The translations under genes were made by a program, and so were the position numbers. This document shows, piece after piece, positions 6,613 through 41,695 of a DNA stretch of 64,000 nt. The stretch's first letter is position 1. Each line of letters opens with the position of its first letter. Under the pieces are notes generated by a model. It ran no database searches. It was not told the DNA's origin and saw only the letters and a list, made by a program, of their open reading frames with translations. Origin of the DNA: an uncultured Candidatus Saccharibacteria bacterium (GTDB lineage: Bacteria; Patescibacteriota; Minisyncoccia; Phycocordibacterales; UBA2100); NCBI GenBank assembly GCA_964437185.1, contig CAYTFU010000002.1, positions 41,296 through 105,295 of the forward strand, written 5' to 3'.

Positions 6613-6613
6613 A

Positions 6614-7159: not shown

Positions 7160-7164
7160 GACCT

Positions 7165-7821: not shown

Positions 7822-8825
7822 ATGATACATTTCTCCGTGCGGCAAGAGGAGAAAAAACGGAGCAAATCCCGATTTGGTTTATGCGCCAGGCTGGACGATC
7901 GCTTCCTGGCTACCGCAAACTTCGCGAGAAATACAGCGTGCTGGAGCTCGCGCAGACGCCGGAACTCGCAGCGCAGGTCTCAATCGAGCCAGTAGAGCGA
8001 CTGGGAGTGGACGCCGCGATACTCTTTGCAGACATTATGCTTCTGCCTTTGGCGCTCGGTGTAAAACTCGAAATTGTGGATTCTGTGGGCCCTGTTATAG
8101 ACTCACCGATCGAGAGCAGAGCAGATATAGAGCGCCTCCTACCTTTTAAGAAAAGCAATATAACGTACCTGGGAGACACCATTAGACTCCTGCGGCAACG
8201 TCTTGATGTGCCGGTCATCGGTTTTTCTGGCGCTCCTTTCACACTGGCCTCCTACCTCATAGAAGGTAGGCCGACGCGCGACTGGAAGAAGACCAAGAAA
8301 TTCATGCTCGAGGAGCCGGAGTTGTGGGAGCTTTTAATGCGAAAACTTTCGGATTCAGTCATTGGCTACCTAGACGTACAGATACAGGCAGGAGCGCAGG
8401 CAGTGCAACTTTTCGACAGTTGGGCGGGATGTCTTTCGCCAACTGACTACAGGACGCACGTGCTACCGCATGCTCGGAAGATATTTTCCGCCCTGAAAGA
8501 ACGTAAGGTGCCGCGGATACACTTCGGCACGGATACCGGCGCCATGCTGGAGGATTTCGCCGATGTGGACTGCGAAGTCATCGGTGTGGATTGGCGAGTA
8601 GATCTCTCAAAAGCGAGAGAATTGGTCGGCAAGAAAGCGCTGCAAGGCAATCTCGACCCGGCAGTGCTTCTGTGCGATTGGTCTGTAGTCGAAAAGAAGG
8701 TAGACGAGATGCTTTTCAACCTTGGGAACGCGAAAGGTTACATATTCAATCTAGGGCACGGTGTATTGCCTCAAACCGACGACAAGCAGATCAAGCGGCT
8801 TGTCGAATACGTGCATGGTAAATAA
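7818..8825 (+). CDS. hemE: uroporphyrinogen decarboxylase
   Basis: PIWFMRQAGRSLPGY and ILFADI motifs with full-length similarity. ATGA overlap with chdC. Confidence 0.93.
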   Translation: MNDTFLRAARGEKTEQIPIWFMRQAGRSLPGYRKLREKYSVLELAQTPELAAQVSIEPVERLGVDAAILFADIMLLPLALGVKLEIVDSVGPVIDSPIESRADIERLLPFKKSNITYLGDTIRLLRQRLDVPVIGFSGAPFTLASYLIEGRPTRDWKKTKKFMLEEPELWELLMRKLSDSVIGYLDVQIQAGAQAVQLFDSWAGCLSPTDYRTHVLPHARKIFSALKERKVPRIHFGTDTGAMLEDFADVDCEVIGVDWRVDLSKARELVGKKALQGNLDPAVLLCDWSVVEKKVDEMLFNLGNAKGYIFNLGHGVLPQTDDKQIKRLVEYVHGK

Positions 8826-9732
8826 GATCGGCGTGGTTCTGATGACGTACGGTTCCGCTAATACCTCGGCCGGAGTCGAAGCGTATTTCAGGCATATCTA
8901 CGAGAATCCTTCGCCGGAAGCTATTGCAGATTTCAAGAATCGTTATGATCTGGTAGGCGGCTCGCCTCTGGTACGCATCACCAAGCATCAGGCCGTGCTT
9001 CTCCAGAAAAAACTCGGTAAAAAGTACGTAGTGCGCTCCGGGATGCGGCACTCGAAGCCCTTTATCGCCGATGCGGTTGCCAGTCTGAAAAAAGCCAATG
9101 CAAATGAGATTCGCAGCATAATCCTTTCTCCGCAATTCTCATCTTTTATTATGGAGGGCTACAAGAAAGACTTTACGGAGGCCGCAAGAGCAAATGGATT
9201 TACAAACTACATGATCGCAGGGCCATGGCCTGCTGATGAACATTTTGTCAAACTTTTCGCAAAGCGCATAAAGGTAAAGCTCTCCAAACTCGGCAAAGAT
9301 ACACCAGTCGTGTTTACGACTCACAGCTTGCCCCAACGAGTCGTCGATACAGATCCGAGTTATTTAAAACAATTAGACCAGACTATCGTCGCAGTGAGAA
9401 AGCAATTGCCAAAAATAAATTGGTACCAGGGATACCAGAGCGCGGGCCACACGCCCGAGGAATGGCTCAAGCCCGACCTCACCGACATTCTTGCCGACCT
9501 CGCCAAAAAAAGACAAGACAAAGTCCTGATAGTACCGATACAGTTTCTCTCCGACCATTTGGAGATCCTCTATGATCTCGATATTGCTGCACGCGAGCAG
9601 TGCAATGAATTCGGAATAGACTACCATCGTATCGAGTTACCGAATACCGATCCGCTGTTCATACGATCGCTTGAAGAAATCACAAAAAAAGCTGCTCCGC
9701 GATTGCGTGGTGCGCGAGGACGACGCATATAA
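8815..9732 (+). CDS. hemH: ferrochelatase (probably coproporphyrin ferrochelatase)
   Basis: IGVVLMTYGS N-terminus, TTHSLP and IQFLSDHLEILYDLD motifs. Start chosen at the internal ATG overlapping the hemE stop. Confidence 0.88.
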   Translation: MVNKIGVVLMTYGSANTSAGVEAYFRHIYENPSPEAIADFKNRYDLVGGSPLVRITKHQAVLLQKKLGKKYVVRSGMRHSKPFIADAVASLKKANANEIRSIILSPQFSSFIMEGYKKDFTEAARANGFTNYMIAGPWPADEHFVKLFAKRIKVKLSKLGKDTPVVFTTHSLPQRVVDTDPSYLKQLDQTIVAVRKQLPKINWYQGYQSAGHTPEEWLKPDLTDILADLAKKRQDKVLIVPIQFLSDHLEILYDLDIAAREQCNEFGIDYHRIELPNTDPLFIRSLEEITKKAAPRLRGARGRRI

Positions 9733-13185: not shown

Positions 13186-14370
13186 GTGGAGCGTGTTCGC
13201 GATATACTTGAGAGCATGCGAGGCTTGTTTGGAAAGCATTCACACGATAAAACAGTGGGCGTCATCCGGCTCGATGGCGAGGCGAGCGTTGCGATTGTGC
13301 GGCAGAGAGATGAAGTCCCCTCTGAAATTCTTGCTGCCGAGCTCAGTCCCGTCACATTTGAAGAGCGCCCTCCAGAGTCGGTCGCTGCGGGGACGCCCGC
13401 TATTTCTGCGGTCTTTGAGGCGATGCATACCAAGTACGCGGCACTCGTCGCTCGCGGAATTCCACCTGTGAGTGAGGTGCAGGTAACTCTCGGCGATCCA
13501 TGGAGCACATCAAAGGTCGTCCGCGCAACCAAAAAATTTGGTAGCGACGTCATCATTACCGAAAAAATGATTGCCGACCTCGCCAAAGAACTGCTCGCCG
13601 AAAATTCGACTAAAGATCAGGATCTATTCGAGGCCAGCGTCGTAAGAACGGAGTTGAATGGGTACAACTCTGGCAAGCCGGAGAGGAAACGTGCTCGGCA
13701 ACTCTCGCTTTCAGTGCTGATGAGCACATTTCAGAGTGGTTCCCGAGCGTCAGTACAGCGAATCGTTGAAAAACTCTTTCCACATGTCATTCCGACCTTT
13801 CGATCATCTATCCGCGCCAACACGACAGTGATTCAAGAGGTGATTCCTGACTCAAAAGATTACCTTATCGTAACGATCTTAAGCGGGGCCACAGCGTTCA
13901 CCGTAGTCCGCGACGGCACAATGGGTGAATCTTCGATATCAGAGATCGGGATGGCCAGCATCGTAAAAAGAATATCCGCGAGCGGAATGCCTGAAGAGAC
14001 TCTCACAACACTCAAGATGCTTGCACGAGATCAATGTTCAGAGCCCGCATGCGATATAATCCGTGCGTCTATGGGTACGATTGAGCCCGAGCTTGTGCGT
14101 GATTATGGCGAGGCACTCGGTAAGTGCGCATTTGAGCGGCGGGTACCCAACACGCTCGTGTTGTTATCACATCCCGATATATTGCCCTGGATGGCGCGCT
14201 TTTTTGCACGCATCGACTTTGCACAATTTACTCTCACGACACAACCCTTCGATGTGCGCGGGGTCCAAATTGGAGATCTGTCGAAATTGATTTCTCGAGC
14301 CGATGGGGTAGTGGTCGATTCGCCTTTGGCGACGGCATGCGGACTTGTCAACATCGAGGCGAGTCGGTAG
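13186..14370 (+). CDS. hypothetical cytoplasmic protein
   Basis: 394 aa ORF with a GTG start and no recognised motif. Weak resemblance to a degenerate actin/FtsA-PilM-like fold; speculative. Confidence 0.45.
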   Translation: MERVRDILESMRGLFGKHSHDKTVGVIRLDGEASVAIVRQRDEVPSEILAAELSPVTFEERPPESVAAGTPAISAVFEAMHTKYAALVARGIPPVSEVQVTLGDPWSTSKVVRATKKFGSDVIITEKMIADLAKELLAENSTKDQDLFEASVVRTELNGYNSGKPERKRARQLSLSVLMSTFQSGSRASVQRIVEKLFPHVIPTFRSSIRANTTVIQEVIPDSKDYLIVTILSGATAFTVVRDGTMGESSISEIGMASIVKRISASGMPEETLTTLKMLARDQCSEPACDIIRASMGTIEPELVRDYGEALGKCAFERRVPNTLVLLSHPDILPWMARFFARIDFAQFTLTTQPFDVRGVQIGDLSKLISRADGVVVDSPLATACGLVNIEASR

Positions 14371-17090: not shown

Positions 17091-17705
17091 ATGTTGCTCA
17101 TCAAATCAAAGTACAAAATTGCGAAGCGGCTGGGGGCAGCGATATTTGAAAAAACGCAATCTCAGAAATTCGCACTTTCGGAAGCTCGATCGCCTCGCAA
17201 GACTCGCGGGGGACGCGGCGGAGGAAGTGACTACGGCAGACAATTGTTGGAGAAGCAGCGTGTTCGCTACACCTACGGCCTATCGGAAAAGCAACTCTCG
17301 CGGTATGCGCAGGCCGCGTTTGCCGAGCCGGATCCTTCAAAGAGCCTTCATACGCTACTCGAAATGCGCGCTGATTCGGTGGTGTACCGCGCCGGATTTG
17401 CACCCACTCGACGCGCCGCTCGGCAAATGGTATCGCACGGCCACGTCACGGTGAATGGTCGGAGAACTACCGTTCCGTCTCACCAGGTCCGAAAGGGAGA
17501 TGTGATCGGGGTGCGCGAAGGAAGCCGTGGAAGCGCCCTTTTCACCGTTCTTGCAGAGAAGAATTCTGAATCGCGACCCAACGTGCCCTCGTGGATCAAC
17601 GTTTCGGTTGAGAAACTCACCGCCGAGGTATCGGGCGTGCCGAGCTACAATGCCGTAGAAGCAGGCCTTGATTACGCAACAGTATTTGAGTTTTACAGCA
17701 GGTAG
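17091..17705 (+). CDS. rpsD: 30S ribosomal protein S4
   Basis: YGRQLLEKQ..., S4 domain VSHGHVTVNGRRTTVPSHQV, and synteny. Confidence 0.93.
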   Translation: MLLIKSKYKIAKRLGAAIFEKTQSQKFALSEARSPRKTRGGRGGGSDYGRQLLEKQRVRYTYGLSEKQLSRYAQAAFAEPDPSKSLHTLLEMRADSVVYRAGFAPTRRAARQMVSHGHVTVNGRRTTVPSHQVRKGDVIGVREGSRGSALFTVLAEKNSESRPNVPSWINVSVEKLTAEVSGVPSYNAVEAGLDYATVFEFYSR

Positions 17706-17754
17706 TGTATAATTGCGAACGATTTTTACTAGAACTTGACGAATTTTTAATTCT

Positions 17755-18732
17755 ATGTCCGATTACCACATCGCCCTCCCCAGCAAGCCACGAGTCGTAA
17801 GTGAATCAGAGAGAAATGGTATCTACGAGGTCGATGGCCTCTACCCAGGGTACGGATTCACACTCGGAAATTCGCTTCGTCGCATCATACTTTCGTCCCT
17901 CCCGGGCGCAGCAGTGACGCACGTCAAGATTCCAGGTGTATCTCATGAGTTTTCCACGATCGAAGGCGTGAAGGAGGATGTGGTTACGATTCTGCTCAAT
18001 ATTCGAAAAATACGATTTAAGATTCTGACGGACGAGCCTCAGAACATTACGCTCTCTATCAAGGGCCCGAAGGCGGTGACCGCCGCAGATCTCAAACTCC
18101 CCGGCCAGATAGAAGTCCTCAATCCTGATCAGCACATTGCCGATGTTACGGGCAAGGCCTCGTTTGAACTCGAGCTTCGTGCAGAGCGCGGGCTTGGCTA
18201 CATTCCTAAGGAGGCTCACCAAAAGGAGCGCGTAGAAATCGGCACCATCGCGCTTGATGCAATCTTTTCTCCGATTCGACGAGTGAACTACGAAGTGGAA
18301 AACATGCGCGTCGGTGACCGCACGGACTTCAACAGACTTCGCATTGTCATCGAGACCGACGGAACGCTCGCGCCGCGAACCGCTTTTGAAAACGCCATTG
18401 AAACTATGATTCACCAGCTTCGAGCCATTGTAGGCTTCAAGGAGGAAGAGATATCGGACACCCCATCGTCTGTTGAAATCGGCCGATCGTCGAGCAGAGA
18501 AGACCGTTCTGCGCCCGTGGATTCGGAGCAACTCAAGACTCGTATCACCGAACTCAACCTGCCTCAGCGCGTGGAAATGGCGCTCGATAACGCGTCTATC
18601 CGGACGGTCGGCGGCCTTGTGCGCAAGCGCGAAGACGACCTTCTCAGCATCGAGGGTCTCGGTCAGAAAGGACTTCAAGACATCAAGCGCGCGCTCTCAA
18701 ATATGGGTCTCACGCTTCGCACGGATAAGTAA
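17755..18732 (+). CDS. rpoA: DNA-directed RNA polymerase alpha subunit
   Basis: [23 protein letters not shown], with a C-terminal domain carrying the helix-hairpin-helix [14 protein letters not shown]. Confidence 0.95.
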   Translation: [325 protein letters not shown]

Positions 18733-18743
18733 ACGCTTTTGGT

Positions 18744-19097
18744 ATGCAGCATCACAATAAAAACAGAAAGCTGGGCCGAGAAAAGGGACAGCGCACGGCG
18801 CTTCTCAGAAGCCTCGCGCGATCCCTCGTGCTGCAAGAGGGCATTACGACAACCGTAGCGAAAGCGAAGGAGCTTCGGCCGTTCGTTGAGCGATTGGTGA
18901 CAGCGAGCAAGAATAATTCACTTGCTTCTCGTCGTACCATATCGAGTACGATGGGTGGCGCAGCGGATGTCGTGAAGAAGCTGCACAGCGATCTCGCCGT
19001 TCGGTATGCAGAGCGGGCGGGCGGATACACTCGGATCACACTCTTGGGCAAAGTCGGCAAGCGTGCGGTGGATTCGGCGCGAATTGAACTCGTCTAA
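18744..19097 (+). CDS. rplQ: 50S ribosomal protein L17
   Basis: HHNKNRKLGREKGQRTALLRSLA...GGYTRI. Confidence 0.94.
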   Translation: MQHHNKNRKLGREKGQRTALLRSLARSLVLQEGITTTVAKAKELRPFVERLVTASKNNSLASRRTISSTMGGAADVVKKLHSDLAVRYAERAGGYTRITLLGKVGKRAVDSARIELV

Positions 19098-19104
19098 TAA
19101 TAGT

Positions 19105-19458
19105 ATGGAGAAGCGAACACACACGATCGATGCAGCAGGCCGTACACTTGGCCGCATTGCCTCTGAAGCAGCGAAGGCGCTGATGGGTAAAATGTCTCCC
19201 GACTACACGCCGCACATTGACTCCGATATTAAGGTAACGATTACCAACGCGTCAAAAATGTATGTTCGAGACCGAAAGAGTCTTGCAACCATCTATACTA
19301 CCTACTCCGGTTTTCCTGGCGGACAGAAGCGTGAAAGCATGTCGTCGCTCGCAAAGCGCAAGGGCAGGGGGGAGGTAATTCGCCGCGCCGTCAGCCGAAT
19401 GTTGCCACGCAATACCATGCATACAGCTCGTTTGAAGAATTTATCGATTAGCGAATAG
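19105..19458 (+). CDS. rplM: 50S ribosomal protein L13
   Basis: Internal ATG of ORF 19006-19458. IDAAGRTLGRIASEAAKALMGK...MLPRN. Confidence 0.92.
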   Translation: MEKRTHTIDAAGRTLGRIASEAAKALMGKMSPDYTPHIDSDIKVTITNASKMYVRDRKSLATIYTTYSGFPGGQKRESMSSLAKRKGRGEVIRRAVSRMLPRNTMHTARLKNLSISE

Positions 19459-19501
19459 TTCGACGTGCTCACTATAAATAACTCAATAACCCTACATTTT
19501 T

Positions 19502-19897
19502 ATGGCAAAGGATAAGGAATACCGAGAGGCAGTTGGCCGACGAAAGACGGCCACAGCGCGCGTGCGAGTTGTACCCGCAAAGAGCGCTTCCATGATCGTC
19601 AACGGAAAAGATGCGGCATCGTATTTTCCGCTCGACATAATGGTAAAGACTGCGTATGCGCCGATGAAACTCTTGGGCGCTACCTATGCCGTGTCTGCGC
19701 ACGTGCGGGGCGGAGGCTTGAAAGCGCAAGCTGAGGCGGTGCGACACGGTTTGTCGCGCGTCATGAGCGAGATTGTACCTGAACAGCGCAAAGACCTGAA
19801 GATTAAGGGTTTTTTAAAGCGCGATCCGCGGGCAAAGGAGCGCAAGAAGTTTGGCTTGAAGGCGGCACGACGTGCCCCGCAGTGGTCGAAGCGCTAG
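19502..19897 (+). CDS. rpsI: 30S ribosomal protein S9
   Basis: GRRKTATARV...GGGLKAQAEAVRHGLSRV...KFGLKAARRAPQWSKR. Confidence 0.95.
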   Translation: MAKDKEYREAVGRRKTATARVRVVPAKSASMIVNGKDAASYFPLDIMVKTAYAPMKLLGATYAVSAHVRGGGLKAQAEAVRHGLSRVMSEIVPEQRKDLKIKGFLKRDPRAKERKKFGLKAARRAPQWSKR

Positions 19898-19923
19898 CTT
19901 CGAGCCTGCGTGAGGAGGGGGTC

Positions 19924-19977
19924 GGGGAACCCGCCGGTTCCCCGTGAAGGAAGAAGTGGGAAAACCGTGGGTTTCCC
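19924..19977 (+). terminator. two GC-rich hairpins downstream of rpsI (no clear U-tract)
   Basis: First hairpin is GGGGAACC-cgcc-GGTTCCCC (19924-19943). Second is GGGAAAACC-gtg-GGTTTCCC (19958-19977, one bulge). Confidence 0.3.
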
Positions 19978-19986
19978 AGAACCGCG

Positions 19987-20003
19987 AGTGGTCGAAACGC
20001 TAG
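19987..20003 (+). repeat. second copy of the rpsI 3' terminus
   Basis: agtggtcgaaAcgctag versus agtggtcgaaGcgctag at 19881-19897. Both read WSKR-stop, 106 bp apart. Confidence 0.35.
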
Positions 20004-20046
20004 TCGTTCGTTCCACTTTTAAGAGCGAGTGATATACTCGTTGTCT

Positions 20047-20592
20047 ATGAGTGACTCCGATCATGTAACCGACGACGTCGACTTCGAGTCAGAGGACGAT
20101 CTTGGCGCCGTCGCTGCACTAAAGGTTAAGATTCGGGCACTTCATCAATCGCTTGAACAGTGCAGAAAGGAGCGCCAAGAATACCTCGATGGCTGGCAGC
20201 GATCCAAAGCAGACGGCATAAATGCGCGTAAAGAAGCGATAGCCTCTGCGGATCGTTTGGCTACGCGATCTAAGGAGACGCTTATCGAAGACATTATCCC
20301 TACTCTCGACGCTTTCGACATGGCGATGAATAACGAATCCTGGAGCAAAATGGACTCGCAGTGGCGCTCCGGTATTGAATTTATACGCAATCAACTCTCC
20401 GACGCACTCACGCGCAACGGAGTTGAGGCGTTTGGGAAGGTTGGAGATCCTCTCGATCACAATCTGCATGAGGTAGTGAGTGAAATCGCCGATGATGAAG
20501 GGGATTCCCAGGCGATCGTCCGCGTCGTACGCAAAGGATACAAGGCGAGTGATCGAATCTTGCGTCCCGCTCATGTCGTTATTAAAAAATAG
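20047..20592 (+). CDS. grpE: nucleotide exchange factor GrpE
   Basis: Acidic N-terminus, a coiled coil, and a C-terminal GDPLDHNLHEVV...RPAHVVI pattern. Lies upstream of dnaK. Confidence 0.9.
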   Translation: MSDSDHVTDDVDFESEDDLGAVAALKVKIRALHQSLEQCRKERQEYLDGWQRSKADGINARKEAIASADRLATRSKETLIEDIIPTLDAFDMAMNNESWSKMDSQWRSGIEFIRNQLSDALTRNGVEAFGKVGDPLDHNLHEVVSEIADDEGDSQAIVRVVRKGYKASDRILRPAHVVIKK

Positions 20593-20629
20593 CGCCCGCC
20601 CAACTACCAATTTCTCGCGCAAGCCAGAC

Positions 20630-20657
20630 TTGCACCGAGGCGGGAAAAAAATATAAT
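20630..20657 (+). promoter_or_regulatory. sigma70-like promoter upstream of dnaK
   Basis: TTGCAC, 16 nt spacer, TATAAT, about 40 nt upstream of the dnaK ATG. No CIRCE element seen. Confidence 0.4.
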
Positions 20658-20697
20658 TCGCTTGAAAAGACCAAAGTTATCAAATAATCTAACCACT

Positions 20698-22548
20698 ATG
20701 TCAAAAATACTTGGAATTGACCTCGGTACGACAAATTCCGCTATCGCGATCGTGAGAAGCGGCGAGCCAGAAATACTCGAAAATGCGGAAGGTGCTCGAA
20801 CCACACCATCGGTCGTCGCGGTATCAAAGACGGGCGAGCGCCTTGTGGGCCTTTTGGCAAAGCGCCAGGGCGTCACCAATCCCAAAAACACGGTCTACCA
20901 AATTAAGCGATTCATCGGACACAACTACGACGAAGCCGCAGCGCAGTCCGACAAGGCGGCTGTACCATTTGAGATTCAAAAATCGGCAAACGGTGGCATT
21001 GAGGTAAAGATGGCTGATAAGTGGCACCGACCAGAAGAGATTTCTGCGATGATACTTCAAAAACTGAAGCAGGACGCGGAGGCGCGCATCGGCGAGACCA
21101 TCACCGAGGCCGTCATCACGGTGCCTGCGTACTTCAATGACTCGCAAAGGCAGGCGACCAAAGACGCGGGCAAAATTGCAGGACTCGACGTGAAGCGCAT
21201 CATCAATGAACCAACCGCGGCAGCACTCGCGTACGGTTTCAACAAAAAGAAGAATGAAAAGATCGTCGTGTTTGACTTTGGAGGCGGTACGTTTGATATC
21301 TCGGTCCTTGAGGTAGGCGACGACGTGATCGAGGTACGATCTACCGACGGCGACGCGCACCTCGGCGGCAAGGACATTGATCAGAAGATCATGAACTGGA
21401 TAGCCGATGAGTTTAAGAAGCAATCCGGCGTCGACGTGCGCAACGATTCGCTCGCACGCCAGCGGCTCGATGAGGCGGCGGAAAAGGCCAAAATTGAGCT
21501 TTCAACTGCTCTGGAGACAGAGATCAACATCCCGTTCATCACTTCGACAGACGCAGGCCCGCAACACTTGCTGGTGAAAATGACGCGGGCCAAGCTTGAG
21601 GAACTCACAAGCGAATTTTTGGATCGCGCGATGAATATTACGAAGCGTGCCGTGGCTGCGTCGCCGTTCAAAGTAAGCGACATCAACGAAGTCGTGCTCG
21701 TCGGCGGCCAAACCCGCATGCCGGCAATCCAGAAAGCTGTTGAGACATACTTTGGAAAAAAGCCAAACTTAAGTGTCAATCCAGACGAAGTGGTTGCAAT
21801 CGGTGCTGCGATTCAGGGCGGAATCTTGCAGGGCGACGTGAAGGACGTGCTCTTGCTCGACGTGATTCCACTTTCTCTTGGCATTGAAACAATGGGGGGC
21901 ATTGCGACGAAGCTCATTGAGCGCAATACCACCATTCCGACGTCGCGCTCGCAGACATTTTCAACGGCCTCGGACAATCAGCCGTCGGTCGAGATTCACG
22001 TCGTGCAGGGTGAGCGACCGATGGCGGGAGACAATAAATCGCTTGGTCGCTTTAATCTCGACGGCATTCCACCAGCACCGCGCGGCACTCCGCAGGTCGA
22101 AGTATCGTTCGACATCGACGCCAACGGCATACTTTCTGTGAAGGCAAAAGATAAGTCTTCTGGCAAGGAGCAGTCCATTCGTATAGAAGCCACTTCGGGC
22201 CTTTCGGACGCTGAAGTGGAAAAGATGCGCAAGGATGCCGATCTCAATGCGGAGGCGGATAAAAAGAAACACGATGTAGTGGAGGCACAAAATGCAGCAG
22301 ATCAGGTAATGTACGCCGCCGAAAAAGCGCTCAAAGAACACGGCGACAAGGTTGGTGACGACATAAAGAAAAATGTGCAAGAAAAAATAGATGCACTGAA
22401 GGCGGCTCGCGCCGGCACCGATCTCGAGGCGATCAAATCGGCCTCAGACGCGCTCTCGACAGCTATGAGTGCAATCGGAAATGCAATGGCAAAGGCAAAC
22501 CAGACGCCGCCACCGAGCGAGCCAACGCCGCCCGAAGCAGACAAGTAA
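20698..22548 (+). CDS. dnaK: chaperone DnaK (Hsp70)
   Basis: [19 protein letters not shown] and [10 protein letters not shown] motifs. Start taken at the internal ATG ([10 protein letters not shown]). Confidence 0.97.
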
Positions 22549-22561: not shown

Positions 22562-22593
22562 CAAAGAGCGATCGCACATGCGATCGCTCTTTG
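22562..22593 (+). terminator. perfect 14-bp stem hairpin between dnaK and dnaJ
   Basis: CAAAGAGCGATCGC-acat-GCGATCGCTCTTTG followed by cTTTaca. Could be an attenuator or partial terminator. Confidence 0.4.
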
Positions 22594-23727: not shown

Positions 23728-24216
23728 ATGGACCTCAATGCGTGGTCAAGCGTTCTTTCGTCGTGGCCGCACGACTGGATTCTTATCGGCGGCATCGCAA
23801 TTTTCGTCTCGCTCGACGCGATGCGCTCTGGCTCTGCCCGCGCGGCGTCGATCGCGCTAGCCTTGCCTGCAACTCTTTTTGCCTTCAACGCAATTCCTCA
23901 GGCTTATTTTTTGGGGCCATTGCTCGCTGAATACACCGCACCAATTGTCCACATTGTTTTATTTGTCGTGTTCTTCGCACTCATTTTTTTCACTACATAT
24001 CGTACCGTCTTTGGCGCATCGGATGGGGGGCGGGTCTTACAATCGCTCCTCATCGGCCTCGCGGCCACGGCCGCTATTGTGCTCGTATGGATTCAGGTGC
24101 CAGCTCTTGAATACGCATGGCATTTTGGCGACCAAGTGCAGGCCGTCTTCGCCCCTGCGCTTAGGCTGTGGTGGTATGTCGCAATTTTCACTTCGCTTGC
24201 GTTTGCGCGGAGTTAA
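23728..24216 (+). CDS. hypothetical polytopic membrane protein
   Basis: 162 aa with 4-5 hydrophobic helices. Its last 19 codons are repeated at 25775-25834. Confidence 0.6.
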   Translation: MDLNAWSSVLSSWPHDWILIGGIAIFVSLDAMRSGSARAASIALALPATLFAFNAIPQAYFLGPLLAEYTAPIVHIVLFVVFFALIFFTTYRTVFGASDGGRVLQSLLIGLAATAAIVLVWIQVPALEYAWHFGDQVQAVFAPALRLWWYVAIFTSLAFARS

Positions 24217-24222
24217 AAGGTA

Positions 24223-24251
24223 TTGGTAAATCCGCGCGAATGTGGCATAAT
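24223..24251 (+). promoter_or_regulatory. sigma70-like promoter at the island's left edge
   Basis: TTGGTA, 17 nt spacer, CATAAT with an upstream TGg, 8 nt before the MNT ATG. Confidence 0.35.
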
Positions 24252-24259
24252 GCGATCGT

Positions 24260-24667
24260 ATGGTAGCCAATTTTACACTCACAGAAACTCAACGATCGGC
24301 TATTGAAAAGCTTGGCGTTGTCCTTTTGTATCTACATGGCTCGGTGGCTGCTGGCACCGCGCGCGCAAACAGTGATGTAGACATTGCTGTTTTATTTGAA
24401 ACTACGCCGCGGGACTCGATTAGCGCGACGACCGCGGTCACGGAGGCTCTACGCGGATTGGTACCGCAACGTGAGATGGATATCGCCATACTCAATGAAG
24501 CAAATCCGCTGCTGAAACAAATAGTCGCCTCGACCGGCAATCTCCTGTACGCGCGTACAACTGACGACGCATTGAAATTTGAGCTGCGCGCCATGCACGA
24601 TTACGAATATTCTCGCCATGTCGTCCGTCTGGGGCAGGAACTTATTTTGCGCAACGTGAGCGTATGA
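24260..24667 (+). CDS. minimal nucleotidyltransferase (MNT-type antitoxin)
   Basis: LYLHGSVAAGTARANSDVDIAVLF (GSx10-ish DxD pol-beta NTase motif). ATGA overlap with the downstream HEPN gene. Confidence 0.8.
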   Translation: MVANFTLTETQRSAIEKLGVVLLYLHGSVAAGTARANSDVDIAVLFETTPRDSISATTAVTEALRGLVPQREMDIAILNEANPLLKQIVASTGNLLYARTTDDALKFELRAMHDYEYSRHVVRLGQELILRNVSV

Positions 24668-25095
24668 CCGAATTTTCTCGAGAATTACTCATGGGCAAAT
24701 TGGTGCAGTGCAGCGAGGCACTCACCGATCTGCAGCGATACCGCGAGGTCGGAACTTTGGATTACCTGCGCGACCACCAGGACATATATTACGCTGTATG
24801 TTATCGGTTTATCGGTGGCATCGAAGCCTTATTTGATGCTGGCCAAATAATTCTGGCGAGCCACGGACAGCATGCAGCCGGTGACGGCGACATACCCGTA
24901 CTTCTTGGGCGAAGGAAAATTATATCTGACGAGCTGGCTAGTGCATTCACCAATATGTACGGTTTTCGCAATCGGCTGGTGCACGCCTACGGCACGCTCG
25001 ATGATTCCAAGGTGGCCGAGTACCTTCAGAGGCATCTTGTAGATATCGAGGAGCTTATCAGTGTATTTCGAGACACGGTGACAAGCTCGGAGTGA
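24664..25095 (+). CDS. HEPN/DUF86 domain protein (HepT-like toxin)
   Basis: RNRLVHAYGTLD (Rx4-6H HEPN motif) near the C-terminus; paired with MNT. Confidence 0.8.
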   Translation: MTEFSRELLMGKLVQCSEALTDLQRYREVGTLDYLRDHQDIYYAVCYRFIGGIEALFDAGQIILASHGQHAAGDGDIPVLLGRRKIISDELASAFTNMYGFRNRLVHAYGTLDDSKVAEYLQRHLVDIEELISVFRDTVTSSE

Positions 25096-25128
25096 AGGCG
25101 AATGAGGATCAGATAGTAAATAGTCATT

Positions 25129-25608
25129 ATGGGGGAGATCGAGATACAGTCCTTGGTGGCTGAGGTCGATCGGGAGGCGGTAGAGTTTTGCCGCGAGATT
25201 TATTCTGAAATGGGATGGCCTGAACATGCCCTAGGTTCAAGCGTCGCGGCACTATTCAGTGAACCTGGTGATGCTTTTGTGACCATCAAGCAGGCCGGAA
25301 AAATTATCGGTACCGGTGGTTTTCTACGACTCTCAAAAGAAGAAGCGGTATTAAAAAGGTTTTACCTCGCAAAACATGTACGCGGTAGTGATCTCGCGCC
25401 GCGATTATTTGCCGATCTCGTAGATAGGGCGCGAGTCATTGGGTACTCCGTGCTCCTTGTGGATGTTTCTTCAACCAACGTACGTGCGATACGATTCTAT
25501 GAGAAGGAGGGTATGAAGGAGTTTTTTGGTGTCTCACCCCACCCGCGCTGGGAAGGATCCTCACCCGAAAGGCAGAAAACTGACCGATATTTTCGCTTAA
25601 AACTCTAA
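25129..25608 (+). CDS. GNAT family N-acetyltransferase
   Basis: 159 aa with the pattern LAKHVRGSDLAPRLFADLVDRARVIGYSVLLVDVSSTNVRAIRFYEKEGM (acetyl-CoA binding motif A region). Confidence 0.75.
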   Translation: MGEIEIQSLVAEVDREAVEFCREIYSEMGWPEHALGSSVAALFSEPGDAFVTIKQAGKIIGTGGFLRLSKEEAVLKRFYLAKHVRGSDLAPRLFADLVDRARVIGYSVLLVDVSSTNVRAIRFYEKEGMKEFFGVSPHPRWEGSSPERQKTDRYFRLKL

Positions 25609-25774
25609 TTCAACCTGAGGTGATCCATGCTTCATTTTCACATTGTCGCCCGCAAGAGAGCGGAGTAGTTCCGTCAGAGAAACAGAGAATTTACCACAGC
25701 CCTCTCTTGCCTTATCGACAGCAAGGTTTAGAGTACACCCTATGGGTGCGTTTTCATGGAGACTTCTCGAGGAC

Positions 25775-25834
25775 GCACTAAGACGGTGGTGGTATGTCGC
25801 AATCTTCACTTCGCTTGCGTTTGCAAGAAGCTGA
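25775..25834 (+). pseudogene. orphan 3' fragment of a diverged allele of the 23728-24216 membrane-protein gene
   Basis: Encodes ALRRWWYVAIFTSLAFARS-stop versus ALRLWWYVAIFTSLAFARS-stop. Of 10 nt differences, 9 are synonymous or stop-to-stop. Confidence 0.6.
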
Positions 25835-25856
25835 GAAAATCAGCGCCTCCATACCT

Positions 25857-25884
25857 TTGCACTGGCTGATTTACGTGTTATAAT
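25857..25884 (+). promoter_or_regulatory. strong sigma70-like promoter, possibly giving a leaderless transcript
   Basis: TTGCAC, 16 nt spacer, (TGt)TATAAT. The ATG of the DMT transporter lies only 6 nt after the -10 box. Confidence 0.45.
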
Positions 25885-25890: not shown

Positions 25891-26787
25891 ATGCATGCTG
25901 AGCTTATCGTCGCAGTACTCGCAGGAATGGGCGGCATGTTCGGATGGGGATTTTCAGAATTTGGAGCAAAAAAATCCGTTGATGACATAGGAGCAATTTC
26001 CAGCCTCGTGTGGGCGCATGTCTTTGGCACGGTGATTCTTTTTGCGCTGCTTATAGCCCGGTCCTCCTTCACGCATGAATCCGTTTATTTCCCGACAGAT
26101 TCCGGTGTATGGCTGGGTCTTATTTTTTTTGGAGCTCTCCAAGCTGCCGTATATTATTTTGCTTATAAAGGTTTCGGAGAGGGTGAGGTTTCCATTTTGA
26201 GTCCTATTTTTGCATCGTTTGCCGGTCTCGTCGCACTGCTATCTGTCTTGGTATTTGGGGAGATTTTGAGTGTAGGTATGGTGCCCGCTTTAGTAATTAT
26301 TTTTGGGGGCGTGATACTGATGAATCTTGATCTAGGAAGATTCCGAACGGCGGGTGTTCGTATCAAAGCTGTCGCCGGATTGAAAGCAATCCTAGTAGCT
26401 ACGGCACTTGCGACGATTTGGACCTTGGGGTGGAACACATTTTCGGGAACTCAGGACTGGATAGTTTACACGACCTTCATGTTTGTATTTATGACACTTG
26501 CAGCATTTGGTATGGCACGGTTGGCAAAAGTTAATTTAATGGAGGTTAAACCACGAGCATGGAAATTCTTATGGCTCATAGCTGTGGGAGAGGTTGTTGC
26601 GTATTTGGCAATAACGTTGGGTTATGCAAATACCTCGTATACCAGTGTCGTTGCAATATTGAGCGGTGCCTCTTCTTTACCGACCATACTGCTCGCTCGT
26701 ATCTTTCTAAAGGAACAAATGACGAAGACGCAAGCGGTTAGCTGCGTCGTCATCATCGCAGGTATCGTCATCTTGGCTGTATCATAA
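25891..26787 (+). CDS. EamA/DMT superfamily transporter
   Basis: 298 aa with about 10 TM helices in two EamA-like halves. Confidence 0.8.
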   Translation: MHAELIVAVLAGMGGMFGWGFSEFGAKKSVDDIGAISSLVWAHVFGTVILFALLIARSSFTHESVYFPTDSGVWLGLIFFGALQAAVYYFAYKGFGEGEVSILSPIFASFAGLVALLSVLVFGEILSVGMVPALVIIFGGVILMNLDLGRFRTAGVRIKAVAGLKAILVATALATIWTLGWNTFSGTQDWIVYTTFMFVFMTLAAFGMARLAKVNLMEVKPRAWKFLWLIAVGEVVAYLAITLGYANTSYTSVVAILSGASSLPTILLARIFLKEQMTKTQAVSCVVIIAGIVILAVS

Positions 26788-26789
26788 AT

Positions 26790-28247
26790 ATGCAGCCAAA
26801 ACACCCAAAATCCCATCTTACGCACGCGCTTAATCACGTGACGCATAAAGCGATTCGCTGGTGCACCCCCTCGATTGATCTGACATTCGCTCAGGTTAAA
26901 AACCCCTATGCGAGCGACACGTCGACATCTTTCGAATCGCTGGGGTATCCTTCTGACCCATCCGGCGTTTTTAAAAAAGTGTACGAGCATGCTGCTAGCG
27001 CATATGGGGCGCAGCACACTCTGTTCTCCGTGAATGGCACTACCGGTAGCAATTTCATGGTTTTGCGAGCTTTAAGCAAACAAATTCCAAATCTTCGGAT
27101 GCTCGCCCAAAGAAATGTGCATAGATCAATTGTCGCGGCATGTGAGGATTATGGAATAAATCTTTTCTTTCTGGAACCCAATATCGATCAAACTCACCAA
27201 CTTTTTCTTCCAAACACGGTAGAGCAAATATGTGAGGGGATTGAGCGGATCAAGCCGCAAGTGCTGCTTCTTACTAATCCTACCTACGAGGGACTTTGTC
27301 TCGACTTGAAACACGTCATTGCGACTGTGCGGGAAAAATCCCAAGAAATGATAATGTACGTCGATGAGGCGTGGGGCGCTCACTTGCATTTTTCCGATAA
27401 GCTGCCCATCTCTGCTATGGATGCCGGAGCGGACATTTGTGTTCAAAGTACTCATAAGCAAGGCGGGTCTCTTCAGCAGTCAGGCATGATTCATTGGAGA
27501 GAAGGGAGAATTAACAACGACCTGCTCGTCGAGTCCTATCGAAGCCTAGGAACCAGTAGTCCGTCCTACTTGCTTCTTGCGTCTTTGGATGCCGCGAGGG
27601 AAACTATGCAAAAAAAGGGCAAGAAAAAGATAGACCACATACTGACAACCGCAAAGCATTTGTCCGACGAGACAAGTAAAATCTCCGGTTTGCATGTGAT
27701 CTCAGTAGACGACCTGACGACAAACTATTCATCAGTGCGCGATAGAGATAATTCAAAAGTAATTGTTGACGTTACCGGTACGGGGTTTAACGGATACGAT
27801 GTGGCAAATATTTTGGACAGTAAGTATAAAATTTTAGTTGAATCGTACAACCTAAAAACGATTCTTTTTCTTGTCCCATTTAGGGCAACGGCCGCTGATG
27901 TCCATACGACGGTAGCGGCCCTTAAAGAAATAGTTCGTAAACCTAAAAAGAACGGCGTCGCGATGGAATACAATTTAATAATCCCGACAAATATTCCTAA
28001 AATTTTGGACTTACATGAAATGACAAAACTGCAGGTCGATCAAATTGAGCGCGTGCCGTTGGACAGGGCTGTCGGACGAATAGCGGCAGAGCATATTACT
28101 CCATTTCCACCAGGTATTCCAATCACTATTAAGGGCGAGGAATTGACGAGGGAAATTATCGAATATTATATTGCATTAAAGGCGTACCCCAATGTCCACA
28201 TAGCGGCGCGCGACAAATCAGTAGAATATGTATGGGTTGTAAAGTAG
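26790..28247 (+). CDS. PLP-dependent Orn/Lys/Arg decarboxylase (fold type I)
   Basis: SVNGTTGSNFMV and STHKQGGSLQQSGMIH (PLP-Lys region). Starts 2 nt after the transporter stop. Confidence 0.8.
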   Translation: MQPKHPKSHLTHALNHVTHKAIRWCTPSIDLTFAQVKNPYASDTSTSFESLGYPSDPSGVFKKVYEHAASAYGAQHTLFSVNGTTGSNFMVLRALSKQIPNLRMLAQRNVHRSIVAACEDYGINLFFLEPNIDQTHQLFLPNTVEQICEGIERIKPQVLLLTNPTYEGLCLDLKHVIATVREKSQEMIMYVDEAWGAHLHFSDKLPISAMDAGADICVQSTHKQGGSLQQSGMIHWREGRINNDLLVESYRSLGTSSPSYLLLASLDAARETMQKKGKKKIDHILTTAKHLSDETSKISGLHVISVDDLTTNYSSVRDRDNSKVIVDVTGTGFNGYDVANILDSKYKILVESYNLKTILFLVPFRATAADVHTTVAALKEIVRKPKKNGVAMEYNLIIPTNIPKILDLHEMTKLQVDQIERVPLDRAVGRIAAEHITPFPPGIPITIKGEELTREIIEYYIALKAYPNVHIAARDKSVEYVWVVK

Positions 28248-28274
28248 CCTTACGTTTTGTTGTATAATGATTGC

Positions 28275-29792
28275 ATGAGGAAATTCAAAACGGTCTTCGA
28301 GCAGTTGCCCACGCCCGTTAGCATCGCCGTTTTGCTCGTCATAATTGTGATTGTTATTACCACCTCGTGGACGCTATACAATCACACGGTCGACATTCTC
28401 ACGCAGAATTTAAGAGACCGTTTGCAGACTATCTCTGTTACCCAAGCGGCCAATGTCGATGCCTCGGATATTGAGGCACTTCAGGTAGAGGAGGATTGGA
28501 AAAAACCAGAGTGGGAACATCTGGTAAGTAAATTGCACAAAGCAAAGTACAGTAATGGTCAAATTGTTTTTATATACATTTTCCGAAAAACCAAGGATGA
28601 CCCGACCAAAATGGAATTCGTTGCAGACGCTGATTCAATTGACCCATATGCAAACATTAACAATAATCCAACCGGAGAAATAGTTTCCGCATCAACATGC
28701 CCTTTGTGCGTTGACTCCAACAGAGATGGAAAAATCGACAGAGAACATGCTGATAGGCTGCAGTGGCCCGGCATGCTGTTCCCCGAAATAGAAGGTGTGC
28801 CGGAAGCTTTTGCGGCATATAACGGCCCGATTACTGTGCCGGATATTTACACGGACGAATACGGCTCAGTTCTTACGGGCTTTGCTCCCATCACAAACGC
28901 AAGCGGGACTGTCGTAGCGATTCTGGGAACCGACATAAAAGCCGACGACTTTCTCACAATCACAAGGCAGACGCTGTATCCGTTTCTTGCGTTTATCGCC
29001 GCGCTGACGCTGATTATCGCCGTTTTGGCGGCATCGCTCATTTATATTTGGTCTCGACGTGCAAACATGTTAGCAAGACTTTCGCGTAGCCTAGAAATAG
29101 CTAATGCCCAGCAGGAAGGCCTTTTGCACTTTATTAGTCATGAGATCAAGGGCTACCTTACCAACAGCGAAGCAGGGTTTGCTTCCATCGCGGAGGGGGA
29201 TTACGGAGAGGTTACCCCTCAATTGAAAACCATGGCCACAAGCGCCCTCGCGAATGTCCGCAGGGGAGTGAGCACGGTGGTCGACATACTTCGTGCGGCG
29301 GATATGAAGCGAGGCACGGTCTCGTACAGAAAAGACCCTGTCGACGTGCGAGCGGTCGTCGAGAATGTTATCAACACACTTCGACCAAACGTCACAGAAA
29401 AAGGCCTAACTCTCGAGACCAACATCGCAGATGGGTCGTACACCACCTCGGGCGATGAGGAGAAACTTCGCAACAACGTCCTCCGCAACCTCATCGACAA
29501 CGCCATCCGATACACGCCGACCGGAACGATTACCATCAGCCTTTCCAACGCTGGCGGTACAATACGTTTTTCGGTAAAGGACAGCGGTGTCGGAATTACT
29601 GAGGAGGATAAGAAGCGATTATTTACTGAGGGTGGGCACGGCAAAGAATCCATAAAAACCAACGTCCATTCCACCGGCTACGGCCTCTTTATCGCAAAGC
29701 AAGTAGTAGACGCCCACGGCGGCAAAATCTGGGCCGAATCGGAAGGGGAGGGCAAAGGCTCCACGTTTGTTGTAGAGCTCCCCACTGCATAG
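28275..29792 (+). CDS. sensor histidine kinase with periplasmic Cache-like sensor; no adjacent response regulator
   Basis: Two TM helices, H-box FISHEIKGYL, N-box NLIDNAIRYTP, and DSGVGI...GYGLFIAKQVVDAHGG. TATAAT at 28264-28269. Confidence 0.9.
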   Translation: MRKFKTVFEQLPTPVSIAVLLVIIVIVITTSWTLYNHTVDILTQNLRDRLQTISVTQAANVDASDIEALQVEEDWKKPEWEHLVSKLHKAKYSNGQIVFIYIFRKTKDDPTKMEFVADADSIDPYANINNNPTGEIVSASTCPLCVDSNRDGKIDREHADRLQWPGMLFPEIEGVPEAFAAYNGPITVPDIYTDEYGSVLTGFAPITNASGTVVAILGTDIKADDFLTITRQTLYPFLAFIAALTLIIAVLAASLIYIWSRRANMLARLSRSLEIANAQQEGLLHFISHEIKGYLTNSEAGFASIAEGDYGEVTPQLKTMATSALANVRRGVSTVVDILRAADMKRGTVSYRKDPVDVRAVVENVINTLRPNVTEKGLTLETNIADGSYTTSGDEEKLRNNVLRNLIDNAIRYTPTGTITISLSNAGGTIRFSVKDSGVGITEEDKKRLFTEGGHGKESIKTNVHSTGYGLFIAKQVVDAHGGKIWAESEGEGKGSTFVVELPTA

Positions 29793-29806
29793 TAGAATGC
29801 GTTGGT

Positions 29807-30055
29807 ATGTTGACGAACAAAGATATAGACAAGATGATAAAGGTTTTCGCTACTAAGGAAGACATCCGGAGCGTCACCGATAGACTCGACAGGCTGGAAT
29901 CCTTGGTTCGCGGTCTTCTAACTGGGGTGGACAAACTCGCGACGAGTGTCGACAAATTGCTTTTGGAGTATGCGGCAGTCAGCGAACAACTTACGCGCCA
30001 CGAGAGGTGGATCAAACAAATCGCAAAAAAGTCTGGCGTGATGCTCGCGGACTAG
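29807..30055 (+). CDS. small coiled-coil protein, family member A
   Basis: 82 aa. The C-terminal EYAAVSEQLTRHERWIKQIAKKSGVMLAD aligns with the ORF at 60378-60653. Confidence 0.65.
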   Translation: MLTNKDIDKMIKVFATKEDIRSVTDRLDRLESLVRGLLTGVDKLATSVDKLLLEYAAVSEQLTRHERWIKQIAKKSGVMLAD

Positions 30056-30085
30056 CAGTGCATTAGACTTGATTCTTTTCTATAA

Positions 30086-30175
30086 AAAGTAGACACTCGC
30101 AAGTGCAAAATCTGGGCCGAATCGGAAGGGGAGGGCAAAGGCTCCACCTTCATTGTCGAACTTCCCGCAGCTTAA
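30086..30175 (+). pseudogene. orphan 3' fragment of a diverged histidine-kinase allele
   Basis: Reads KVDTRKCKIWAESEGEGKGSTFIVELPAA-stop versus the HK C-terminus VVDAHGGKIWAESEGEGKGSTFVVELPTA-stop. A 43-bp core is identical (30105-30147 = 29722-29764). Confidence 0.65.
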
Positions 30176-40272: not shown

Positions 40273-41564
40273 ATAGAGGACTCGCCGTTATCTCGGTACT
40301 CTGCGTACTGCTGTGCTTACCGTCCAATTCCTTCGCCCAAAATGCGCCTGCCTCAGAGGAGCGCATCAACTCCTTACAATCGCAGATTGACACCCACAAA
40401 TCTGAGATCGAAAAAATTGACCGGGAAATTGCGCAATATCAACAGCAGCTTGACGCTGTCGGGACCAAAAAGAAAACACTTCAAAACACACTTTCGCAGC
40501 TGGATCTTCAGATAAAAAAAGCGACTGCGTCGATAAACGTCACAAAAAATAAAATTAGTGCAACGCAGCTCGAAATTCTCCAGCTTGAGAAGGGAATTGC
40601 AGGCAAAGAAGTTTCTATCGAAACGGGGAACCAGGGCCTGCGAGAGTCCCTGCGTCGACTCAATGAGATTGGAACCAATCCTCTTGCAGTGCAAGTGCTT
40701 TCCTCAATCGACATCTCCGAAGCGTGGGAAGACGCGGACGCTATTCAAGAACTCCAAGTGGCAGTGCGCGATCAAATCGCACGACTCGCTTCGGAGAAAC
40801 AATCACTCACGGAGACAAAAAACCAGACCGAGGCGAAGCGCGCGCAATTGGTGAAGCAAAAGGATACTCTGCTTGCGCAGCAAGGCTCGCTCACGGCTCA
40901 AAAAAAGGCGCAGAACGAGCTTCTCGTTCAGACCAAATCACAGGAATCCACCTACCAATCAATTTTGAAACAAAAACAGGCGGCAAAAGCCACGTTTGAA
41001 GCAGCGCTTGGTGATCTTAAAATCCAGTTCCAGAGAGCTATTAGGCCCTCGGAAATTTTGGCCGCCGGAAAGGGGATATTGCGCTGGCCGCTCGACAACG
41101 TGCGCATCACACAGCAATTTGGAAACACCGCCTTCGCGGCTTCTGGTGCATATAATGGCAAGGGACACAACGGCATCGACCTCGCCGCTCCCGTCGGCAC
41201 ACCGCTGAGAGCGGCTCTTAATGGCGTAGTTTTGGGGACGGGCAACACGGATAGCATAAAGGGCTGCTACTCATTTGGACGGTGGGTGATGATTAAGCAC
41301 CCCAATGGGATCAACACCATGTACTCGCACCTCTCCCAAATCAACGTTGCAGAGGGCCAAAACGTCGATACAGGGCACATAATCGGCTACAGCGGGGAAA
41401 CGGGCTATGCCACAGGCCCACACCTTCACTTCGGCGTGTACGTCAGCTCGGCAACGGCAATCATTCGCCTCGGCGCCGCGAGCAATTCGACCACCCCGTG
41501 CTCAAACGCCGTCATGCCCGTCGCACCCCTATCGGGATACTTAAATCCGATGAATTATCTCTAG
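40269..41564 (+). CDS. M23 family metallopeptidase with long N-terminal coiled coil (EnvC-like)
   Basis: Signal peptide, about 250 aa coiled coil, then HNGIDLAAPVGTPL and GYATGPHLHFGV. Confidence 0.88.
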   Translation: MNRGLAVISVLCVLLCLPSNSFAQNAPASEERINSLQSQIDTHKSEIEKIDREIAQYQQQLDAVGTKKKTLQNTLSQLDLQIKKATASINVTKNKISATQLEILQLEKGIAGKEVSIETGNQGLRESLRRLNEIGTNPLAVQVLSSIDISEAWEDADAIQELQVAVRDQIARLASEKQSLTETKNQTEAKRAQLVKQKDTLLAQQGSLTAQKKAQNELLVQTKSQESTYQSILKQKQAAKATFEAALGDLKIQFQRAIRPSEILAAGKGILRWPLDNVRITQQFGNTAFAASGAYNGKGHNGIDLAAPVGTPLRAALNGVVLGTGNTDSIKGCYSFGRWVMIKHPNGINTMYSHLSQINVAEGQNVDTGHIIGYSGETGYATGPHLHFGVYVSSATAIIRLGAASNSTTPCSNAVMPVAPLSGYLNPMNYL

Positions 41565-41597
41565 TACCGAGATACTCCTAACCTGAAATGAGTCTAG

Positions 41598-41620
41598 CCC
41601 CGTGGTGAAAACGCACGGGG
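41598..41620 (+). terminator. hairpin in the 55-bp spacer between the two M23 3'-end copies
   Basis: CCCCGTG-gtgaaaacg-CACGGGG. No U-tract. Confidence 0.3.
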
Positions 41621-41664
41621 TCGCACCCCTATCGGGATATCTAAATCCGATGAACTATCTCTAG
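41620..41664 (+). pseudogene. orphan second copy of the M23 peptidase 3' terminus
   Basis: 45 bp, 42/45 identical to 41520-41564 and exactly 100 bp downstream. All 3 differences are synonymous; both encode VAPLSGYLNPMNYL-stop. Confidence 0.6.
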
Positions 41665-41695
41665 TGGGGCGGAGCCTGCTTGTAATACAGTTCGC

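Follow-up and report, generated by a model that had tools for sequence, protein, structure and literature searches.

Gene content of the mem162 locus

We examined a 64,000-nt stretch of DNA from an uncultured Candidatus Saccharibacteria bacterium (contig CAYTFU010000002.1 of GenBank assembly GCA_964437185.1; hereafter the window), focusing on a membrane-protein gene, mem162, whose 3' end occurs twice. The last 19 codons and stop codon of mem162 (copy 1) recur in the same orientation 1618 nt downstream (copy 2), and the 1558 nt between the copies hold a MntA/HepT toxin-antitoxin pair and a GNAT acetyltransferase gene. Behind copy 2 come genes for an EamA-family transporter, an Orn/Lys/Arg decarboxylase and a histidine kinase (Table 1). 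An initial annotation, made from the sequence alone, had reported this repeat; a repeat search, a BLAST of the window against itself and direct comparison all reproduce its extent, spacing and insert size. Where that annotation saw an integrative element at the 3' end of the gene, we find that the locus is most likely a recombination scar in a hotspot and not a new self-mobile element.

Most of the 30 mem162 homologs found are, like mem162 itself, 162 aa long. The gene pair behind copy 1 has the properties of a type VII toxin-antitoxin system: both proteins score above their NCBIfam equivalog cutoffs, the genes are laid out as an operon in which mntA and hepT share 4 nt (ATGA), and each translation shows its catalytic motif (GSx10DxD in MntA, RNRLVH in HepT). 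MntA/HepT systems are known, and the pair is ordinary in itself, only its genomic setting being of interest. Pfam and NCBIfam thus bear out the earlier description of the insert as an MNT/HEPN pair and a GNAT gene with no integrase or transposase. One promoter-like site stands behind each mem162 copy, including the TTGGTA-17-CATAAT noted initially, and such sites are no more numerous in the region than in shuffled sequence. Between the end of the GNAT homology and copy 2 lies a non-coding tail with a weak terminator-like hairpin (25736-25748), for which no homolog was found; its folding z-score is -0.27, and neither the inserts nor the 25640-25774 part of the tail is unusually structured (z from -0.05 to -1.4). 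The Rfam search gave no RNA family match in the window.

Table 1. Coordinates of the mem162 locus and of the other duplicated gene ends and starts in the window
Feature	Position	Strand	Remarks
mem162, membrane-protein gene, 162 aa	23728..24216	+	No Pfam family; conserved beside DnaJ in Kaiserbacteria and other Parcubacteria
Copy 1, working last 19 codons and TAA of mem162	24157..24216	+	
Promoter-like TTGGTA-17-CATAAT upstream of mntA	24223..24251	+	Consensus match only
MntA nucleotidyltransferase antitoxin, type VII toxin-antitoxin	24260..24667	+	PF18765, E = 1e-15; NF047752, 78.6 bits (cutoff 60)
HepT RNase toxin	24664..25095	+	PF01934, E = 6.5e-22; NF047751, 69.9 bits (cutoff 60)
GNAT acetyltransferase	25129..25608	+	Pfam; 77-80% nt identity to L017 and L058-L061, ending at 25624-25627
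Unique non-coding tail, from end of GNAT homology to copy 2	25628..25774	+	147 nt; ends at putative joint 25774/25775
Copy 2, putative displaced relic of the last 19 codons and TGA of a mem162 allele	25775..25834	+	
Promoter-like TTTGCA-17-TATAAT upstream of EamA gene	25856..25884	+	
EamA-family transporter	25891-26787	+	Pfam; low GC3, many AGA codons
Orn/Lys/Arg decarboxylase	26790-28247	+	Pfam; low GC3, many AGA codons
Histidine kinase	28257..29792	+	Anchors the hotspot downstream; conserved in most relatives
S9 gene end and second copy	19880-19897; 19986-20003	+	88-nt insert; 16/18 nt match
Histidine-kinase end and second copy	29705-29791; 30088-30174	+	E = 5e-17 (window self-BLAST); 43-nt identical core
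orf82, small coiled-coil gene, 82 aa	29807..30055	+	Cargo between the two kinase-end copies
M23 peptidase end and second copy	41520-41565; 41620-41665	+	54-nt insert; 43/46 nt match; 3/3 differences synonymous
LeuRS gene start and diverged second start copy	51986 down to 51948; 52096 down to 52058	-	MKKYDHRAIERKW; MKKYDHTKIEKKW

The two copies of the mem162 terminus differ as alleles do

Counted through the stop codon, the two copies are identical at 50 of 60 nt. The repeat search recovers them as a direct repeat of 90% identity over 50 nt (24157-24206 and 25775-25824), and the self-BLAST gives the pair E = 1.4e-11. When the 36 residues at either end of every ORF were compared with the translated 3 kb beyond that ORF, the mem162 pair topped this protein-level scan with a score of 94 (highest background score 38; z = 24.7). 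The coding part (57 nt) contains nine differences, eight of them synonymous and one replacing Leu with Arg, and the stop codons are TAA in copy 1 and TGA in copy 2, so that the differences are nearly all synonymous or stop-to-stop, as first described. These counts correspond to dS ~1.05 and dN 0.024. A synonymous bias of 8/9 has p = 1e-4 if both copies drifted neutrally and p = 0.004 if copy 1 was constrained while copy 2 drifted. Pooled over six pairs, namely the five found in the window and one from a related locus (L027, see below), 42 of 61 differences are synonymous, which has p = 2e-13 under neutrality and p = 2e-6 if just one copy is neutral.

These values bear directly on whether the repeat arose by target duplication in place, through a transposon or a staggered cut, with subsequent neutral decay of the displaced copy. 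Such an origin would find parallels in the long target duplications without mobility genes that have been documented (PMC2853133), and a kinase relic in a related locus (L023) is indeed more degraded at the protein level. Against this, the synonymous bias holds even when copy 1 is taken as constrained, and again in the pooled test, while synonymous divergence has reached about 1 with almost no protein change. In-place decay is therefore rejected for copy 2, and we regard this origin of the locus as very unlikely.

Both copies also encode ALR.WWYVAIFTSLAFARS, residues that no database relative has (the family reads AYRFWWL...), which points to a close relative and not a distant donor as the source. 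Together with the synonymous bias, this supports the earlier suggestion that copy 2 is the end of a once-functional, diverged mem162 allele, from a closely related lineage (~5% protein difference). The pattern of substitutions shows that both copies evolved under protein-level constraint, as working gene ends in different lineages.

The structure is present in independent assemblies

An assembly artefact, through collapsed strain haplotypes or unmerged contig overlaps, deserves attention for any metagenome-assembled genome such as this one, and clustered SNPs do distinguish a co-occurring strain. It is nevertheless an extremely unlikely explanation. Contigs from at least six sequencing runs, produced by two assemblers (MEGAHIT k141 and Logan), match the window at 99.93-100% identity and carry the same structure, spanning both copies and the junctions, so that haplotype collapse, which the initial annotation had raised as a way in which its reading might fail, does not account for the repeat. 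Moreover, the near-identical core of the mem162 repeat is 39 nt and the longest fully identical run common to the copies only 20 nt, which is too short to leave an ambiguous path in the de Bruijn graph at k = 31 to 141.

When positions 17273-22320 of the window are compared with L001, a contig from another sample, 11 SNPs appear, clustered at 17273/17300, 17850/17862 and 21864-21939. These clusters look like short recombination tracts between co-occurring strains.

The locus lies in a variable region of related genomes

Using an alignment of the mem162 family as the query, we retrieved 32 loci from species-representative genomes (L-numbers are labels of loci in database relatives), all from Patescibacteria and mostly from Candidatus Kaiserbacteria, which the genome of the window itself resembles; a scan of the genome collection with the mem162 sequence alone gave no match. 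The common order in these relatives is S9, GrpE, DnaK, DnaJ and mem162, followed by 0-8 kb of variable genes and then by the histidine kinase, TrpRS, AspRS, ScpA and ScpB. Given these conserved flanks and the variable stretch that they enclose, the segment of the window from 24217 to ~30200 lies within a gene-insertion hotspot between mem162 and TrpRS. What follows mem162 there is, for example, TrpRS itself (L006), an inverted kinase with a response regulator (L005) or an aldo-keto reductase (L049).

The nearest thing to an empty site in the databases occurs in L020 and L021, two loci of related Kaiserbacteria in which a single mem162 terminus is directly followed by the EamA gene and then by the decarboxylase gene, the same order as in the window from copy 2 onward; their mem162 has only 51% protein identity to that of the window. 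This adjacency resembles the empty site that had been suggested for a search of related genomes; no precise counterpart was found at close range. The closest non-self mem162 homolog among 5.8 billion proteins is 68% identical, leaving no close relative in the databases, and its contig stops 56 nt past the gene. In metagenomes, scanning for sequence that encodes WWYVAIFT, a pattern specific to this lineage, gave two matches, both due to chance, and look-ups of the exact mem162, EamA and GNAT proteins returned the same population only, always with the insert and with no empty site.

Further duplications of gene ends and starts

Besides the mem162 pair, the window contains three robust duplications and one short one (Table 1). 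All four had been listed initially as duplicated termini and all are real, with the qualifications that the LeuRS case is a gene start on the minus strand and that the S9 case is just 18 nt long (chance expectation ~8e-4 over all gene ends). The second histidine-kinase end reads VDTRKCKIWAESEGEGKGSTFIVELPAA followed by a stop and lies directly upstream of TrpRS. The two LeuRS start copies are 110 nt apart, the second one upstream, and were detected by the scan with z = 8.4. Three of the five duplications in the window flank merely 54-88 nt without any cargo, and one of the five is a gene start. The segments duplicated at the different loci have no motif in common beyond chance 7-mers.

The same end/start-duplication scan, applied to ~530 kb of related loci, yielded two cases, both of them in the hotspot between mem162 and TrpRS. 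One, in another Parcubacteria genome (L027, 17387-18175), is a ParD/RelE-like toxin-antitoxin pair bracketed by two diverged copies of the end of the upstream gene. This duplication of ~130-145 nt continues beyond the stop codon, through the intergenic sequence and as far as the next ATG, and shows 15 synonymous and 5 non-synonymous differences. The other (L023, 15405-15860) consists of a kinase gene, an ORF for a 102-aa coiled-coil protein and then a degraded kinase-end relic with its stop at the homologous position, a layout that is the same as that of the window at 29705-30174. The density of such scars is therefore 4-5 per 64 kb in the window versus 2 in ~530 kb of relatives.

The gene between the two kinase-end copies, orf82, belongs to a family of small coiled-coil proteins with a conserved EYAAV..QL.RHE.WIK.IAKKSGV tail and no known family assignment, neither orf82 nor its relative orf91 having a match in Pfam, NCBIfam or PHROGs. 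Members were found in the window at 29807-30055 (plus strand) and 60378-60653 (minus strand), in L027 at 18178-18420 and in L046 at 13316-13648. They occur at insertion junctions, and one copy sits inside an ATP synthase operon between atpG and atpD; the family behaves like a small insertable gene. No duplication was detected around orf91.

The LeuRS gene with the duplicated start (48615-51986, minus strand) encodes 1123 aa, with an alpha/beta hydrolase domain (approximately residues 243-449) and a NUDIX domain (residues 591-684) around the editing domain. A synthetase with an inserted hydrolase and NUDIX domain has an unusual architecture.

The insert is composite and carries no recombinase

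Relatives of the MntA/HepT pair with 56-77% identity sit in unrelated settings: within a polysaccharide gene cluster (L052), between the genes for GreA and PRPP synthase, next to a RelB/YafQ pair (L057) and, in L041, inserted cleanly between the kinase and TrpRS genes without a duplication. Relatives of the GNAT gene (74-80% identity) are found in the hotspot downstream of DnaJ (L017, L058/L059 and L060/L061), usually followed by a gene for a 317-aa protein, and nucleotide homology to all of them ends at 25624-25627. Because MntA/HepT and GNAT have these separate contexts in relatives, the MntA-HepT-GNAT 'island' is composite and not one unit. We also considered the non-coding tail behind GNAT as a remnant of the 317-aa gene and rejected this on comparison.

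In L057, a 47-aa phosphoribosyltransferase fragment (2385-2528) lies just downstream of MntA-HepT-DUF1697, and in another relative MntA-HepT stands beside a full PRPP synthase gene. The fragment may be a further displaced gene fragment.

The initial annotation had proposed that the insert is a site-specific element integrated at the 3' end of mem162 and carrying a replacement terminus, with attL/attR-like repeats and a tyrosine or serine recombinase encoded elsewhere. Integrase-mediated integration of this kind is known from phage e14 at icd and from elements that target tRNA or tmRNA genes, and the likeness is considerable: gene-end repeats that take in the stop codon, a target gene left intact (mem162 keeps the family-typical length of 162 aa), synonymous differences between the copies and a near-identical core between diverged arms. 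Several results weigh on the other side. Pfam scans that covered the three genes of the insert and 47 other ORFs (50 of the 68 in the window) detected no integrase, transposase or recombinase, and no terminal inverted repeats flank the insert. The five duplicated sequences have no motif in common, one of them is a gene start, three are without cargo, and many different targets occur within 64 kb; finally, the insert is not conserved as a unit, and the MntA/HepT pair of L041 was inserted without any duplication. We therefore consider a site-specific element quite unlikely.

A diversity-generating retroelement was considered as well and rejected, with no reverse transcriptase in the scanned ORFs and only 6 of the 10 differences at A in copy 2.

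Composition and the direction of transfer

Base composition does not single out the segment between the copies. The GC3 of the EamA gene (0.441) is the lowest among all genes of at least 200 aa (window mean 0.556, sd 0.055), and that of the decarboxylase gene is 0.477; MntA (0.52) and HepT (0.56) are typical. The drop in GC spans GNAT, EamA and the decarboxylase and has other limits than the stretch enclosed by the copies, so the block after copy 2 may be the newcomer. Codon usage is similarly uneven: AGA accounts for 22% of Arg codons in the EamA/decarboxylase block behind copy 2 as against 9% in core genes, and the insert has none (0%). Copy 2 has two AGA, two GCA and one CTA as variant codons, and these fit the same block better than the core (log-likelihood ratio 2.5 nats). 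In L020 and L021, the EamA gene stands out from its neighbours much less than it does in the window.

Two directions of transfer can be envisaged. Either the 3' part of mem162 came in together with MntA, HepT and GNAT, in front of a resident relic and EamA, or the relic, EamA and the decarboxylase came in behind a resident mem162-MntA-HepT-GNAT. Composition and the codons of copy 2 mildly favour the second, with mem162'-EamA as the order in the donor; the first is only a little less probable. The earlier view of MntA-HepT-GNAT as the newcomer is thus, by a small margin, not the direction that we prefer.

Origin of the duplicated terminus

The explanation that we favour, and to which we give a somewhat better than even chance, is that copy 2 is a relic of a homeologous mem162 allele, left at an illegitimate joint (25774/25775) between blocks of different history by one-sided recombination. 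DNA from a related lineage would recombine at one end only, where it is homologous to a conserved coding region, and the other end of the incoming DNA, in diverged intergenic or accessory sequence, would be joined illegitimately. If that joint was shifted out of register by a few dozen bases, into the resident or the incoming copy of the flanking gene, the resident and incoming alleles of the gene end would both be kept side by side. The process would be homology-facilitated illegitimate recombination, with an outcome equal to that described as 'insertion with long target duplication'. The detectable repeat would end at the ORF boundary because intergenic DNA is not alignable at dS of 0.5-1. 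The S9, histidine-kinase, M23-peptidase and LeuRS scars may go back to the same process, which explains in one scheme the cases with and without cargo and those at 3' and at 5' ends. MntA/HepT may persist at the locus as an addiction module, since such modules resist loss by recombination between flanking repeats.

Several observations weigh against this explanation. RecA-type recombination is inefficient at ~15-20% divergence. Divergence between the copies is also patchy: all eight edge codons of the mem162 pair differ versus one of 12 central codons (p = 2e-4), a core of 43 nt is identical in the kinase pair, and the L027 pair is identical over its 3' 50 nt. A plain out-of-register joint does not predict such patchiness, which suggests a crossover or gene conversion inside the core. 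Furthermore, no donor, recipient or true empty site was found at close range in the databases, so that the type of junction and the direction of transfer are inferred, and every sampled strain carries the insert structure, which gives no evidence of recent mobility.

The patchiness would be better accommodated by a RecA-dependent, Campbell-type cassette cycle, a form of long target duplication that needs no dedicated recombinase. In this cycle the cassette loops out with one repeat by homologous recombination and, once inside a related cell, is inserted through a single crossover within the longest stretch of identity to the homologous gene end, regenerating hybrid repeats with arms from two hosts. 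A crossover that depends on a minimal identical segment would be expected to give near-identical cores between saturated arms, as in mem162 (core of 39 nt), the kinase pair (43 nt) and L027 (50 nt). In two cases (the window and L027) a toxin-antitoxin pair is the cargo, which parallels the life cycle proposed for restriction-modification systems (PMC2853133). This cycle is difficult to reconcile with the three duplications that flank just 54-88 nt, circles of ~100 bp being implausible, with the separate distribution of GNAT and MntA/HepT, or with our finding neither a tandem amplification nor a second copy of the cassette. In addition, codon choice within each mem162 copy is alike in both arms (GCG...GCG in copy 1, GCA/AGA...GCA/AGA in copy 2), so each copy looks like a single allele and not a hybrid. 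We regard the cassette cycle as possible, if rather unlikely.

Comparison with described systems

One-sided homeologous recombination, the explanation that we prefer, would place the locus among recombination outcomes that have been described in other bacteria. Nobusato et al. 2000 (Gene 259:99) is reportedly, with Furuta et al. 2010, a source for insertion with long target duplication, as de Vries & Wackernagel 2002 and Prudhomme et al. 2002 are said to be for homology-facilitated illegitimate recombination. Furuta et al. 2010 (PMC2853133) describe long duplications on both sides of addiction-type modules, most of them in bacteria with natural competence. There, inserts are shorter than 20 kb and lack mobility genes, direct repeats exceed 30 bp and often extend over a start or stop codon, which leaves the target gene intact, and the cargo is of the addiction type; the window locus, with an insert of 1558 nt and a repeat of 60 nt, falls within these sizes. 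It differs in its cargo (a type VII toxin-antitoxin pair and GNAT instead of restriction-modification genes), in the divergence of its repeats (83% identity with allele-like synonymous differences, whereas the described repeats are near-identical, e.g. 417/423 nt) and in its host, a Patescibacteria genome with no close empty-site genome.

Homology-facilitated illegitimate recombination is the origin proposed for displaced 3' gene ends in the type VI secretion loci of Vibrio cholerae (PMC5361080). As in Rhs, CDI and type VI effector loci, there would be a homologous anchor on one side and an illegitimate joint opposite, and the old 3' end would be pushed downstream and kept as an orphan, with successive events building arrays. 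The displaced ends in the window, however, come from ordinary housekeeping or membrane genes and not from polymorphic toxins, and they are short (18-87 nt) and nearly synonymous, with no new C-terminal function exchanged. Set beside these systems, the locus is a known recombination outcome in an unusual host and at an unusual density.

How toxin-antitoxin modules and other small accessory genes enter compact genomes without the help of transposases or integrases is poorly documented, and direct evidence of recombination in bacteria of the candidate phyla radiation is scarce. A diverged duplicate of a gene end records both parental alleles at the junction, and a genome-wide census of such duplicates could gauge how frequently these uncultured bacteria acquire DNA from related species, and the genes that ride along. 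A broader proposal, conceivable but on balance doubtful, is that this lineage routinely gains small cassettes (toxin-antitoxin pairs, orf82-type genes) and swaps operon-boundary DNA with related species without recombinases, via short identical cores in homeologous gene ends, leaving diverged duplicates of gene ends or starts as scars. If true, the scars would be a readable record of inter-species recombination in uncultured bacteria with reduced genomes, and the process would offer toxin-antitoxin modules a general way to move without mobile-element genes.

Other features of the window

Two further observations concern other parts of the window. Between dnaK and dnaJ, at 22562-22593, we found a 32-nt near-perfect palindrome, CAAAGAGCGATCGC-ACAT-GCGATCGCTCTTTG, which is not CIRCE-like and is probably a terminator or attenuator. 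Positions 4659-9732 hold a block of heme-pathway genes for HemB, HemC, HemD, a chlorite-dismutase-like HemQ, HemE and ferrochelatase, unexpected in such reduced Patescibacteria genomes; hemB and hemC have a low GC3 of ~0.47.

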